Positions 6,747-29,816 of a stretch of DNA of 64,000 nt are shown here, piece by piece. The DNA lies in the NCBI GenBank assembly GCA_023205875.1, contig CP060757.1, positions 496,001 to 560,000 of the forward strand. The letters run 5' to 3'. Origin of the DNA: Chloropicon primus (Eukaryota). The notes under the pieces were generated by a model, which worked only from the letters and a program-made list of their open reading frames with translations, did no database searches and was not told where the DNA came from. The first letter of the stretch is position 1, and every line of letters begins with the position of its first letter. A program made the position numbers and the translations under genes.

Positions 6747-7842
6747 GTTGTGAGTCTAGAGTTCCAGAGTATCCCTCGTGCTGGTGCTGGTTTCGCGCAC
6801 CTAAGGAATCCAATTACAGCCTTCAAGCGAAACTTGGCGAGGTAAAAGTATCGATCGAAAGGTCGCGAGACGTACGTGTTATTCGTCCGAGAACTCAAAA
6901 CCCCTACCCCTACCCTCTCCTTTCTCCTCCTCGTCCTCCTCCTTGGGAGCTCTTCTCCTTGGTGAGTGGACTATTGTATAGCAAGACAAACCTCGAGCGT
7001 AAGCGCCTCCAATCCTCACCAAATCCTTCGAGTGAGGGATCCAGAGAGAGATCACGAGATGAAGAACCCTCTAATAGTCTTCCCTGGTACCTCCCTTCCC
7101 TCTTCCTCGACCGAAAGCGCCCCCAACTTACCTCCTTACCTTGGGACTCTTGGGCCCTTCCTCGTTTTGTTTTTGGATAAGTTTTGTTTTTGTCCAAATG
7201 CATGGGTTGTTTTTTTTTTTGGACGAGAGGGAGAGCGAGGGCCTAGGGCGGAAAGGGGCCAAGGCGTAGGCGTCCAACAACGAGGAGGTGAGGAATCGAA
7301 GACAGGGTGGCGTGAGAGCACGGGGGGGGACTCCAACGCGAAGGGAATGACGAACCTTTGCCTGAAGTGATAGAGGAAACGGAAGAGGGGGGGGGACGTT
7401 ACCGCGTTTGTTGTTGTGGGGAACGAGTGACGTTTGAGTTGGGTGTGTTTGAGTTGGGTGTGTGTGTGTGTGTGTGTGTGTATTTCATCGACGCGTGGCT
7501 CCCGAGCGAACGTGGAGGAGTGGTACCGAGGTTTCGTGGGCAGGGATGCGCCGCCCTCGCATCGCATCGCAACGCAACGCAACGTCTCGTGGGATCTCTA
7601 TCTCTTGGGGGACGAGTTTTTTTTGCTGACACGACACTGCTCCATCGCTTGGATATATATGTATATATCGTCCTCCTCGGCTTGCGAACCCTCTTCTGCT
7701 CTTGCTGCTCCCGCCCTGTAGAGTCTTGTTGAATCGATAACCTCTTTGTCTCTCTCAAGATTTGGGTTCCGCTTTGCGTCTGGACTCCATATCTCGCGGA
7801 GCGCGTGGGTTTGGTGAAGAGAAGAGAGAGGAGTTTGCAGCC

Positions 7843-24809: not shown

Positions 24810-25712
24810 ATGCCGCCCCAAGCGAAGACCCTGACACTCGACGGGCGGGAGCCCGTGAGCGTGAGCATCGCGCTCAAGCCGAGGCCGCCGACCGCGGCCC
24901 CCGGGGGCGCGGCCTTCGGCGACCTCGTGAAGGCGGCCGCCCGGGCCGAGAGGGACCTCAACGTCCGGGAGGCGTTGGCGCTGTACGAGAGGGCGCTGGT
25001 GGCGAACCCCTCGGACAGGGAGACCATGCTGCAGGCGTGCAAGGTGAGGTGCGACTTGGGCTTCCTCATCTTCGACGTGATCCACGACGGGCCCATGAAG
25101 CAGTTCTTCACCTGCCGCGAGGAGGAGACGGAGGAGGCGGCGACGGCCCTGGTGAGGCAGGCCCTGGAGGGCGCCCGGCAGCTCACGGAGCAGCACGAAG
25201 ACGACTACAAAGCGTTCACCCTGCTTGCCCTGTGCATCGGGAGGTCGATCCTGCTGGAGTCCCAGAACAAGGCCAAGGTCCGGATGGCGGGGGAGATGCA
25301 CGACGCCGCGCAGCGGGCCGTGGCCCTCAATCCCAAGGACGACGCCGCCCACTTCATGCTGGCCCGGTGGAACAACGACATCGCGAGCCTTCCCAGGGTG
25401 CTGAAGACCTTGGTCAGGTTCATTTACGGGTCCTCGCTCAGGGGCTCCTTCCAGAACGCGGTGCAGTCCTCCCTGACAGCCATCGAGCTCAATCCAACGA
25501 ACCTCGTCAACAAGGTCGAGTTGGGGAGGGCGTACACCGGTCTCGGTGACCTCGCGAGGGCCAAGGCCGTGTACGAGGACGTCCTGGGCCTGCAAGTCGT
25601 GGACGTGAACTCTGCCCTCTACAAGCAGATCGCGTTGGACGACATCGAGAGGATGGACCAGGGCAAGCCCGTCGGCAGCCTCGCCAGGCCGTGGTGGGCC
25701 ATCGGTGGATAA
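24810..25712 (+). CDS. RMDN (regulator of microtubule dynamics)-like TPR protein
   Basis: AQRAVALNPKDDAAHFMLARW...A.L....K.....IYG......SF..A......AIELNP. Confidence 0.75.
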   Translation: MPPQAKTLTLDGREPVSVSIALKPRPPTAAPGGAAFGDLVKAAARAERDLNVREALALYERALVANPSDRETMLQACKVRCDLGFLIFDVIHDGPMKQFFTCREEETEEAATALVRQALEGARQLTEQHEDDYKAFTLLALCIGRSILLESQNKAKVRMAGEMHDAAQRAVALNPKDDAAHFMLARWNNDIASLPRVLKTLVRFIYGSSLRGSFQNAVQSSLTAIELNPTNLVNKVELGRAYTGLGDLARAKAVYEDVLGLQVVDVNSALYKQIALDDIERMDQGKPVGSLARPWWAIGG

Positions 25713-26368
25713 ACCTTATCGCTATTATTTCAAGAGTCTTTGCATGTAAACAAGGGAATCTAACACAACGCACCACGAGGAGTCTCCGAGCGGAGCTGAA
25801 CACACACTCTCTCTAACCCCTCGCCATGAAACGAATTCTGGGTCCCTGCTGCTGTTCTTCTCCTTCTCCTTCTCGCTCTGGGTGGTCACGTCCGCCATGA
25901 ACTTCGCGCTCTCCGGGTTGTCGAGCCTATACACGAGCATGTGCATGTAGGGCGAGGTCCACGTTCAGCCATCTCTGTAGCCCAGGTTGCAGTGGGGGAG
26001 GCGGAGGCTGAGGGTCAAGGTCGTGCGGCCCAACGACGAGTGGATTGACAAGCAGAGGCTGGTGCCTCCGGCCGTAAGGTCCGTGGTCAAGGGGGTGGAC
26101 AGAGTCTTTCATAGCATCTTCGGAGGGTAGTGGGCAGGGGTCCACGCTGTGTATTGTATGGATCAATCATGATCGCCAGTTCACTAGGGGCTCCATCGGC
26201 GAGCCGTGGACCATGGCGATGGCGTGCAGCACGAGCCACCTCTCCGCGCCGTGGAGGGAGGGGAAGCAAAGGTGGACTCTCCCGAGCCTGAGAAAATAAG
26301 AGCGGCAACAAAAGGGGAGTTTATAAATACTACAAAAGCTGTGTTTTTTCCAAAAGTGATCCCATGGC

Positions 26369-26388
26369 TTTTGGCGGGAATTTTGAAA
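26369..26388 (+). promoter_or_regulatory. E2F-like site with adjacent CHR-like motif (TTTTGGCGGGAA TTTTGAAA)
   Basis: Matches the TTCCCGCCAAA consensus, about 90 nt upstream of the ATG at 26471. Confidence 0.5.
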
Positions 26389-26470
26389 AATCGTGGGAGG
26401 AGAAGCGAACCGAAAAACTAAAAGTAACGGACGGGCGTCGAGGCCGAGGGACAGAAGACGGAGCGAGACC

Positions 26471-27616
26471 ATGCCCAAGGGGGTGTTCAATAACAAGCGC
26501 CGCAAGAAGAAGCCGTACGGAGTGCGTATCGGTCGCAGCTCGCCATACTACGCCACCGTGGCGGAGGCCGTCGCCGCCCTCGAGGCGTACCGCGCGGGCA
26601 AACTCAAGAAGAGGAAGACCGACCGAGCCGCGCTCGCGGTGAAGCGCGCCCGCGACCTGGCGATCTACGGCCGGAGCTCCGCCACGGAGCGCGAAGTGGC
26701 GCTCGCCCTCGACGCCGCATGGCGGGCGACCTTCCCCGGGAGAACGGCGCTCGTGCTAAACGACGGCACGAAAGCCGACGTGCTCCTCCGCCTGAGCGAG
26801 GAGGACGCGTGGCTGCCGGTGCAGCTCAAGACGACGGGGGGCGCCAAGAAGGGTGAACCGAATACGTGGCGCTTCCACAACGTCACCGGCTACTCGGGGA
26901 TGTGTGTGGTGTGCTGGCGGTGCGACGTCGGCGATGCGTGGGTGTACAACGGCAACGCGCTGAACGAGCGCGGCAAGCTGGACCTGAGCGTCACCCCCCG
27001 CCGCAAGAACTGTGAGCTCGCGCTCGCGCGTGACCTCAACCTCGACGCGCTCGTGCAATGGCTGAGCGAGCAGGCCCAGGCCCAGGCCCAGGCCCATCTG
27101 TGTCGGTGGACGACCGTCACCGAGCACGCCGCGCGGCACGACTTCGCGTCCGCGGCCCAAGCGCTCGAGATGCGCGGCATCGACGCGTTCAAGGCGAGCT
27201 TCCCAAAGCACCGCTACGCCTTCCCCGAGGGACAGAACACCCAAGTCGACCTGCTCAAGGATGCGACGACGCGCCAGCAGTTCAAGACGGCGCGCGCGGC
27301 GTCTAACGGCGTCGCCGGGTTTATGTGCGACCTGCACACCTACGCCGGGCGTGACGAGGCGGGCAAGCAGCTGAAAGATCCTTACCCGGCAGGGGCGTTC
27401 GACGAGCTAGTGGCGGTGGCGTGGGTGGAAGGCAAAGCATACTTTTGGATCATCCCCGCGGCAGAGCTGGAGGCGAATGGGTACCTGCGATCGGAGTCGC
27501 AGCCTGGGAAGACGTGCCTGAAGCTGCACGCGTCGCAGATTGGCGTGCAGCCGAACCCGCACGCGTGTAAGAAGGTAGACACGTGGACCGACAAGTACTT
27601 CCATTCCGCAGCTTAG
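26471..27616 (+). CDS. Putative endonuclease with basic N-terminal DNA-binding segment and two PD-(D/E)XK-like modules; foreign codon usage
   Basis: DGTKADVLL...WLPVQLKT and NTQVDLL...RQQFKT...PY..GAFD.L...YFWIIP..EL...GYL. Arg is coded mostly by CGN, whereas neighbouring genes favour AGG/AGA. Confidence 0.6.
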   Translation: MPKGVFNNKRRKKKPYGVRIGRSSPYYATVAEAVAALEAYRAGKLKKRKTDRAALAVKRARDLAIYGRSSATEREVALALDAAWRATFPGRTALVLNDGTKADVLLRLSEEDAWLPVQLKTTGGAKKGEPNTWRFHNVTGYSGMCVVCWRCDVGDAWVYNGNALNERGKLDLSVTPRRKNCELALARDLNLDALVQWLSEQAQAQAQAHLCRWTTVTEHAARHDFASAAQALEMRGIDAFKASFPKHRYAFPEGQNTQVDLLKDATTRQQFKTARAASNGVAGFMCDLHTYAGRDEAGKQLKDPYPAGAFDELVAVAWVEGKAYFWIIPAAELEANGYLRSESQPGKTCLKLHASQIGVQPNPHACKKVDTWTDKYFHSAA

Positions 27617-28997
27617 CTTTCATCATGCTTTTTTTTTCTCGTCTTCTTCATCTTCTCCTCGAGCAACCGATGTCTCTCTCTGTCTCTCTCCCAATCATAT
27701 ATTTCATATCTTTTTTATATATAGAAACAATACATATATAACACGCCCCCCTCTCTCTCTCCTTGTTTAGATGAGGTCGCCCCCCGCGCTGATAAAGCCT
27801 CTGGAGCCCTAATTGTGGACAGCAGTCAGTCGTTGCTGCGAGAGTCACCTCCTTGGCATCACGGCCTTCGTCGACAAAGGCGAACAACCACACACACAGA
27901 GAGAGTCAGAGTCAGAGTCAGAGACAGAGACAGAGAGACAGAGAGACAGACAGAGAGAGATTACCTTGGCAAGGAGAAGGATACGATCCAAGACTCGCGA
28001 ACGTAACGCGAGGTGGTCGAGGTTGTGGACCAGAGTTTTCCTTTTCTCTCTCTCTCTCTCTCTTACGAATGCGAATGAGAGAACGGAATGAGGCAAGCGA
28101 GTAGCGCTGGGAAAGGTCGGGAGGTCGGGAGGCAACGCTTATCGTCGTGTTGTGTTGCTCGCTTCCCTCGTCCTCAACCTCCCTTGCGCGCCGCTGTTTC
28201 GGTTTCCGATCAAAGCAAACCGCCGGCAAACGCGATCGATCGATCGATCTGATCTGATCGTGCAGAGAGGGAGGTGGGTGGTGAAAATATGGACAGAGCA
28301 CAACTCTGCAGGGGATGCGACGGATGAATGGAGAAGGGGACGAGGGAAAGAGGGAAAGAGGGGAAGAGGGGAAGGACTTGATTGCTCTCTCCATTGCTTT
28401 CGATGGATCAAGAAATGAATGGATCAGCCGCTTGCTTGCTTTGGAACGTACGGATTTGGAATTTCGATCTCGCTTCCTTCCTCGCTCCTCCTCCCAGGAT
28501 AATGAACGTCTCTCATAGAATATTTTATCGCGCGGAGCAAGAAGAGCCGTCTGACGACACCTCTCACAACCCCTTCCAGGTCCGCGAGGGCGGGAGACGA
28601 GGTCTCCGTTCCCGCAGGAGAGATCCCGGAGAAGGCCTTGCATTTAGCGCTGGCTGCTCTTGTGAGGAGGCCGCGAGGGACTTCAGCTCATGCGAGGGTG
28701 TTTGGGTTCATCCTCCGGCTTGAGAAAATTTGTCTATTCTAGAGAATACAGAATAGGGGAAACAACTATAGAACAAATCCTGTTCGAGTATAGTCGTGCT
28801 TGTGGATTCCGCCGCGACGGTTCTTGTAGGCCACGTCAACTTGCAACGCGAATTGCTGGCGGAGCCCGAGAGCCGAGCGCGGGCAGAGCCGAGGCCCACG
28901 ACGACGAGGACGACGAGGACGACGAGGACGACGAGGGCGATCCGAGGTTGCTCGTGTCTCGGTTTAGGTTTTAGGTCTATACCGCACCGCACCGATT

Positions 28998-29816
28998 ATG
29001 GCGACGACGTCGTTGTGGAGAGGGGGGTTGAGTTTGAGGAGGGGTTTGGTGGCCCTCCTGTCGGCGAGGGGTTTGGTGGCGTCGTCAACTCCAGCTCCAT
29101 ATCCCTCGTCGTCGCTGGGTCGCTCCCTGGTCTTCGCCGAGGCTCGGAGGGACTTCCCTGCTCTTCGCCCGTGCTTCAGCAGCAGCGCGTCGCCCGGCAC
29201 CCCGCTGTTCATTCAGACGCAGGAGACGCCGAACCCCCTGAGCCTTATGTTCGTTCCCGGGAGGGACGTCCTCGCGTCTGACGGGGGCGGCTCGCGCGAC
29301 TTCGCGGACGCCAAGGCCGCGAAGAGGTCCCCGCTGGCCCAGCGCCTGTTCAGGATAGAGGGGGTTCGCGGGGTCTTCTTCGGGACGGACTTCATCACGG
29401 TGACCAAGGCCGAGGACGTGGAGTGGTCCGTGATGAAGCCAGAGATATTCGCGACGATTACGGACTTTTTCGCGTCGGGGAGGGAGATCCTGAACGAGGA
29501 AGTCGCCGCGGAGGAGGACGAGGGCGACGAGGACGACGAGGACGAGGACGAGGTGGTTCTGATGATCAAGGAGCTCCTCGACACCAGGATAAGGCCCGCG
29601 GTGCAGGATGACGGCGGGGACATAAGGTTCGTAAGGTTTGAGCAAGACACTGGGGTCGTCTTCCTGGAACTTCAGGGCGCTTGCGCGGGCTGCCCCTCCT
29701 CCTCGGTCACCCTGAAGAGTGGGATAGAGAACATGCTGATGCACTACATTCCGGAGGTCCGGGAGGTCGTGGAGTACGACCCGATGGACGAGCGGGGCAT
29801 GCCCCTGTCCTTCTGA
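28998..29816 (+). CDS. Mitochondrial NifU-like Fe-S scaffold (NFU4/NFU1 type)
   Basis: [60 protein letters not shown]. Confidence 0.95.

Follow-up and report, generated by a model that had tools for sequence, protein, structure and literature searches.

The Chloropicon primus window analyzed here (64,000 nucleotides; contig CP060757.1, positions 496,001 to 560,000) contains an uninterrupted open reading frame (ORF) on the forward strand that encodes a protein of 381 amino acids (aa). The nuclease gene is mobile, because insertions of it present on only one allele were observed. We consider it probable (roughly 0.6) that the gene is a free-standing, selfish endonuclease of homing type that spreads by break-induced copying, and we regard it as a real, recently mobile variant of the free-standing homing-type endonucleases in a nuclear genome. 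A first-pass annotation of this DNA had proposed a horizontally acquired selfish or homing-type nuclease; the predicted fold, the approximately 10 copies, the lack of green-algal homologues, and the one-allele insertions support that proposal. Most descriptions of homing endonucleases concern phages, prokaryotes, organelles, and introns of rDNA. If our reading is correct, dispersal of a free-standing nuclease in a nuclear genome without a transposase is a route of mobility, and transposon surveys that rely on termini or transposases would overlook such elements. The coordinates of all features are listed in Table 1.

Table 1. Features of the nuclease gene and of the repeated unit that contains it (positions in the window)
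Feature	Position	Strand	Remarks
Outer left flank	25986..26175	+	Depth 3.7-4.6x; probably a captured host-gene 3' end, with 47 open codons before a stop
Inner left flank	26176..26240	.	Depth ~10x; other loci differ before 26176
Leader and likely promoter common to copies	26241..26470	+	26241 is the start of the chromosome 1 one-allele insertion
Nuclease ORF	26471..27616	+	381 aa; one of ~10 dispersed copies
Basic N-terminal three-strand/helix module	26471..26611	+	aa 1-47; AP2-like at weak significance
PD-(D/E)XK domain 1	26657..27100	+	aa 63-210; E73, D103, Q118, K120
PD-(D/E)XK domain 2	27146..27604	+	aa 226-378; E233, D260, Q270, K272; nearest I-Ssp6803I and MepB
Domain-2 active-site coding stretch	27225..27296	+	Diverged duplicate in 5' leader of other copies
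Right flank	27617..27808	-	Likely last codons and 3' UTR of a host gene; junctions at 27667 and 27808
Outer right flank	27809..28452	.	Depth 2.5-2.7x; chromosome 3 insertion diverges after 27814

The first-pass annotation had described an intronless ORF whose arginine codons are mostly CGN, and both observations were borne out. The nuclease ORF has 26 CGN and 2 AGR codons (26/28 CGN), versus 258 CGN and 540 AGR codons (258/798; 32% CGN) in 26 pooled host-like ORFs (Fisher P = 7e-11; highest CGN fraction in any single host ORF, 0.56). The comparison set was picked from the 41 ORFs of at least 200 aa in the window, with the nuclease ORF and antisense shadows excluded. The gene is intergenic. Nearby lie a TPR/RMD1-like gene, a NifU gene, and a match to U3 snoRNA (Plant_U3; positions 28544-28797, minus strand; E = 1.4e-14; 60 bits, with a gathering score of 80 not reached), the last of which sits ~90 nt from the right junction of the repeated unit described below. 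A candidate protein gene at 28453-28997 was rejected, as the U3 snoRNA match occupies this region. No intron family was matched at an E value of ≤0.1 within positions 25500-29000, and the gene does not lie in a self-splicing intron or an intein. A single-copy open frame of ~55 codons without a start codon (25760-25985, minus strand) lies within what is likely the 3' UTR of this TPR gene. Upstream of the nuclease gene, positions 26370-26390 hold a motif that we took to be E2F/CDE-CHR-like; it was dropped as a regulatory signal, since its 8-mer occurs in the window as often as expected by chance (22 occurrences versus 21.8 expected).

The two D-x(n)-Q-x-K modules noticed in the first pass are present as E73..D103..Q118-x-K120 and E233..D260..Q270-x-K272. 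All eight residues are kept in 9/9 C. primus copies, and each is kept in 82 to 86 of 86 family members. In an AlphaFold2 model built from 36 sequences (mean pLDDT, 88; pTM, 0.77), a small N-terminal module is followed by two nuclease domains, and the restriction-endonuclease PD-(D/E)XK fold is predicted in both, as the suggested fold check was meant to establish. Foldseek supported the fold with E values of 6e-8 and 2e-5. By structure comparison, domain 2 resembles I-Ssp6803I (Z = 13.7; root mean square deviation [rmsd], 2.9; 130 residues) and MepB (Z = 13.5; rmsd, 4.6; 129 residues), with the next match at only 8.9; domain 1 matches Hjc-type resolvases at Z scores of 7 to 8. By sequence, family profiles reach MepB (6e-10) and I-Ssp6803I (0.0035). 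The window protein itself has no match in Pfam, NCBIfam, or PHROGs, and no significant match among PDB sequences. On the predicted fold, the conserved acidic residues, and the QxK motifs, the 381-aa protein is predicted to belong to the PD-(D/E)XK superfamily. A motif-register alignment of domain 1 with domain 2 (93 columns; E = 0.0016; probability, 16%) is weak but in register and therefore suggests that the two domains may have arisen by an old duplication. The N terminus was modeled as three short strands and a helix, an AP2-like topology with low similarity to the GCC-box domain (Z = 4.0 to 4.6; Z = 4.0 when folded alone) and no Foldseek match at an E value of ≤0.001. It contains a basic run that we take to be NLS-like. 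We predict from the model that this segment is a small, basic binding module.

Domain 2 shares with I-Ssp6803I, the PDDEXK_5 family of Pfam, its fold, the E..D..QxK site, and a PY..dfD motif. The corresponding profile, PF11645, is matched by 7/86 relatives at an E value of ≤0.01 (best relative, 1.6e-6) and, at its curated cutoff, not by the window protein. I-Ssp6803I is described in sections of PMC3384342 as a single-domain cyanobacterial enzyme that acts as a tetramer and reads a 23-bp pseudo-palindrome, whereas the C. primus protein fuses two diverged domains behind a basic module and is free-standing, multicopy, and nuclear. As far as the modeled fold indicates, the protein would work like I-Ssp6803I, yet it is not a member of the I-Ssp6803I family. 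MepB-like proteins (PF08877; PDB 4LQE) likewise match domain 2 by profile and by fold, and PF08877 is matched by 15/86 relatives; unlike the C. primus protein, MepB is a single bacterial domain. Monomeric LAGLIDADG enzymes also have two pseudo-symmetric domains per chain and asymmetric targets, according to part of PMC3943268, which counts PD-(D/E)xK homing enzymes with the multimerizing ones; the analogy is one of architecture only, since the folds are unrelated. If both domains act on DNA as predicted, the fused design would be the PD-(D/E)XK counterpart of the monomeric LAGLIDADG enzymes.

The unit that is repeated in the genome (25986-28452) is larger than the ORF, which had been overlooked in the first pass. 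Contig depth was that of single-copy DNA up to ~25985, rose to an intermediate level up to 26175, and was ~10x from 26176 on (9.95 to 10.1x at 26176-26360 in two DNA-like runs from one sample). On the right side, depth was 3.8x at 27682-27808 and 2.5 to 2.7x at 28078-28412, and single-copy DNA resumed at 28453. Copy number was read from the depths of single contigs, as summed depth is no copy number. The genome copy number, a check that had been suggested earlier, is thus ~10 by contig depth. Other loci leave the window sequence at 25986, 26176, 27667, 27808, and 28452, where loose contig ends were found, and the 26241 junction is also a contig boundary. The sequence at 25986-26175 continues differently at other loci, and 27638-27808 is the end of a convergent contig of 1.4 to 2.6 kb elsewhere (three runs). 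Together, the different flank depths and the loose ends at several positions indicate that the window copy is the gene plus nested pieces of former neighborhoods, two of them probably gene ends. A short dispersed repeat of roughly 20x depth (28387-28452) coincides with the right junction and may have served as homology there. Other copies carry, directly before the ATG, a second, diverged version (72 nt) of the code for the domain-2 active site; most of this leader duplicate is deleted in the window copy. An apparent joint between 26508 and 27263 was considered as a deletion derivative and rejected, since the leader duplicate accounts for it.

Several features of conventional transposons were looked for at these boundaries. 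The copies have at least seven distinct ends, and no motif was common to the seven. No pair of inverted repeats brackets the gene and none lies at the junctions; no target duplication was seen at the junctions of the filled site. The earlier statement that terminal inverted repeats and target-site duplications are lacking therefore holds at the gene and at the junctions. No transposase was found, so that none of the hallmarks of a terminal inverted repeat (TIR) DNA transposon (TIR, target duplication, and transposase) was present. Two marine metagenome runs (X12 and X14), which gave short pieces only, contained no empty site.

The structure of the copies bears on an explanation that we consider unlikely, namely, that the gene is passive cargo, moved in trans by Helitron- or Pack-type capture or by retrocopying, or inserted by copying at breaks that other nucleases make. 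Helitrons typically capture flanks in a nested fashion, as is seen in the copies, and are defined by a Rep/helicase and by constant ends (5' TC and 3' hairpin-CTRR). Of the seven ends, one left end begins with TC and a second gives CTRR when the minus strand is read, but neither motif is shared between ends. C. primus also has a Fanzor-bearing element with TIRs and 5-nt target-site duplications (described in part of 10.1101/2023.08.09.552727). Against this explanation stand the diversity of the ends and the absence of TIRs and target-site duplications just described. The gene is not followed by a poly(A) tract on the sense strand, and copies include upstream DNA and antisense gene ends. The gene-table entries listed contain “helitron” 0 times and “retrotranspos” 0 times, and the sole reverse transcriptase is telomerase. 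Finally, both active sites are intact, which would be unexpected for pure cargo.

The evidence for mobility comes from the distribution of copies and from allelic differences. Named paralogs lie on chromosomes 3, 4, 6, 12, and 14, with identical proteins from chromosomes 12 and 14; one chromosome 3 copy is listed for the second assembly but not the first, and the chromosome 12 copy for the first but not the second. Supplementary Data 8 of PMC6731263 contains six one-allele insertions of >1 kb, and two of these six are the nuclease element, a family that makes up ~0.09% of the genome. We read the first 400 letters of each insertion sequence, and each of the two nuclease insertions is supported by 4 long reads. 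The insertion at chr1:974796 (2,531 nt; 8:4 reads) begins at window position 26241 and runs into the ATG of a paralog; this call could be the duplication of an unannotated local copy. The insertion at chr3:74671 (1,534 nt; 14:4 reads) contains the reverse of the right flank, up to 27814, and the gene end. Its position fits the 38th gene of the chromosome, and the second assembly annotates paralog HOP50_03g20100 there. The gene is therefore an intergenic nuclease with presence/absence alleles, as expected for a free-standing homing endonuclease. Most copies look homozygous; since heterozygosity of the strain is very low, homozygous copies are no evidence of homing. The remaining four large insertions are one tandem repeat and three ~2.7-kb insertions of another element (chr3:123680, chr6:369520, and chr17:327259), which is probably the IS605/Fanzor-type element of the alga and would then also have been recently mobile.

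Differences between the copies are unevenly distributed. The 47 single-base differences listed in the ORF comprise 43 replacement and 4 silent changes, where 24% would be expected to be silent. This excess of replacements has P values of 0.01 by site and 0.03 by codon (3/35) with two silent changes excluded as belonging to the leader duplicate, and of 0.06 and 0.18, respectively, with these two counted, in a test whose assumptions are violated by mosaic copies. Positions with at least three states (e.g., 134, 287, 289, 349, and 351) fall disproportionately in the post-QxK and late strands (8/13 positions in 68 of 381 aa; P = 4e-4), segments that were drawn after the data were seen. The matching strands of I-Ssp6803I are, we assume, base-reading, and the variable positions are predicted from the model to concentrate in DNA-reading strands. 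Since 175 of 351 informative column pairs are incompatible, the copies are mosaics and recombine. Only three codons (99, 102, and 104) have silent changes alone, all in the domain-1 active-site code; these codons and the leader duplicate could be traces of cutting by the family of its own conserved sequence or of templated repair. Four paralogs have an average transcriptome sequencing (RNA-seq) depth of 17 to 36, and contigs from three possibly RNA-derived runs cover the gene, a coverage that applies to the family rather than to individual copies. Eight of the nine annotated C. primus proteins are full length, and one has lost 21 aa.

Intact active sites, transcription, the replacement excess, and the variability of the reading strands would also fit an arms race. 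On such grounds a virus-derived nuclease might have been kept as an antiviral restriction enzyme, its copies diversifying against giant-virus DNA and being scattered by ordinary dispersed duplication. Giant viruses do contain relatives, and part of 10.1101/299784 proposes that nucleases of mobile elements serve as weapons against competitors. We nevertheless hold this explanation to be improbable: a small nuclease family supplies 2/6 of the large one-allele insertions, the junction-rich flanks point to ongoing movement, none of the three neighbor genes scanned encodes a methyltransferase, and a related subfamily is expanded in another host, where it occurs once beside telomere-type repeats.

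The five best protein clusters are named C. primus paralogs (87 to 93% identity), by which the host is identified as C. primus. Supplementary Data 2 of PMC6731263 gives no homologue of 4/4 paralogs in its 13 green-algal and Klebsormidium columns, and single-copy, vertically inherited green-algal orthologues, which together with the lack of a PD-(D/E)XK fold had been named as findings that would speak against the first-pass proposal, are thus contradicted by ~10 copies and by this absence, just as the missing fold is contradicted by the model. A profile search returned 1,084 representatives at an E value of ≤0.001 (116 at 1e-30), mostly metagenome proteins. In a family tree of 106 rows, a branch with a support of 100 separates the C. 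primus copies from all other members, most simply explained by a single arrival and subsequent local expansion. Among viral proteins, the best three structure matches come from Klosneuvirus (A0A1V0SIJ8), Hyperionvirus (A0A3G5A8P9), and Aureococcus virus (A0A076FH51). These matches are long (298 to 405 columns; E = 1e-15 to 1e-18; TM = 0.51 to 0.57), but identity is only 15 to 17% and no function has been assigned to the viral proteins, which are not the direct donor. Of the 85 members of the first Atlas cluster (score, 0.93), 94% are viral, with Nucleocytoviricota commonest. Five pattern scans of viral contigs, which were insensitive, confirmed relatives in 0/24, 0/56, 0/1, 0/10, and 0/2 candidate stretches, and an equally insensitive pattern scan of prokaryote genomes confirmed 0/8. 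The nearest relatives with known context look eukaryotic, and kinship with giant viruses rests on structure and the Atlas clusters; the family has probably been exchanged between giant viruses and the nuclei of picoeukaryotes.

The foreign codon use, the viral structural relatives, and the one copy with a 21-aa loss might suggest a decaying endogenous giant-virus remnant amplified by neutral segmental duplication, but this is very improbable and largely refuted, in that the three neighbors scanned and the U3 gene are all host-type with no viral hallmark gene among them, nearly all annotated copies are full length with every catalytic motif preserved, the insertions are polymorphic, and differences between copies are clustered rather than random.

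The selfish homing-type endonuclease that we favor would spread as follows. The nuclease would cut the chromosome, and host repair would copy the gene into the break. Like those of monomeric LAGLIDADG enzymes, its fused domains would read a long asymmetric target. When a new site is broken, the break would be resected, and illegitimate strand invasion into one of the existing copies would repair it. Repair synthesis would run a variable distance, so that each hop would carry different flanks and leave neither fixed ends nor a target duplication. New specificities would arise from recombination among the copies together with selection on the reading strands. For phage T4 endonucleases, ectopic invasion of the microhomology type and flank co-conversion are described in part of PMC2988022. 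The free-standing homing endonucleases of T4-like phages (seg/mob) are likewise intergenic and lack an intron, with flank co-conversion, and illegitimate repair has been proposed there to explain new sites (same sections of PMC2988022); they differ in being GIY-YIG or HNH enzymes at defined loci, whereas the C. primus copies are nearly identical and spread across a eukaryotic genome. C. primus also contains further dispersed families as well as an active element that bears a nuclease and could supply breaks. As one culturable alga holds both filled and empty alleles, the mechanism is directly testable, and natural variants of the nuclease should reveal how its specificity is encoded.

A broader proposal, to which we give clearly less than even odds, is that these genes constitute a new class of mobile element of eukaryotic nuclei: a single gene for a natural single-chain PD-(D/E)XK meganuclease with two active sites, for which transposase, intron, and termini are dispensable. 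Such an element would hop between giant viruses and picoplankton nuclei, drag host gene ends along at every hop, be capable in a diploid of homing to the sister chromosome, and renew its targets by shuffling recognition strands between copies. Our searches, which covered literature other than subscription papers, found no description of the C. primus nuclease family, and the main text of the genome paper (PMC6731263) does not mention it, using “endonuclease” 0 times. By description, the MIGE of Mimiviridae are similar, being a single ORF with a short noncoding leader in up to 20 dispersed copies whose mode of spread is unknown; they differ in that their ORF encodes a zinc finger and is located in viral genomes, and the likeness to a nuclease element is one of description and not of sequence (part of 10.1101/299784). 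Our findings may bear on the spread of such single-ORF elements of giant viruses.

Five family loci were recovered from metagenome contigs (5/23 candidates). One (L001; 58%) lies on a eukaryote-like contig in the intergenic space that separates an NDUFB7 gene from a second ORF of host type, neighbors unlike those of the window copy. In a second (L003), the family gene ends ~35 nt before a telomere-type AGGGTTTT array of 14.6 copies (L003 positions 1696-1813). This subfamily, whose members have Cys-rich N-terminal repeats, is expanded on short contigs; it is possibly a subtelomeric or break-healing variant in another eukaryote. Two further loci (L004 and L005) have a virus-like appearance, and no viral hallmark was found on either. 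On L004, the first 39 nt of the family gene (1028-1066) and of an unrelated nuclease-like ORF (6757-6795) are 90% alike, which suggests that N-terminal modules may have been swapped between the two. The unrelated ORF, which we take to be MIGE-like, has a weak AP2 match (E = 0.009). One member of the family clusters (P0223; 826 aa; cluster of P0073) carries an esterase domain, possibly a fusion with a captured host gene.
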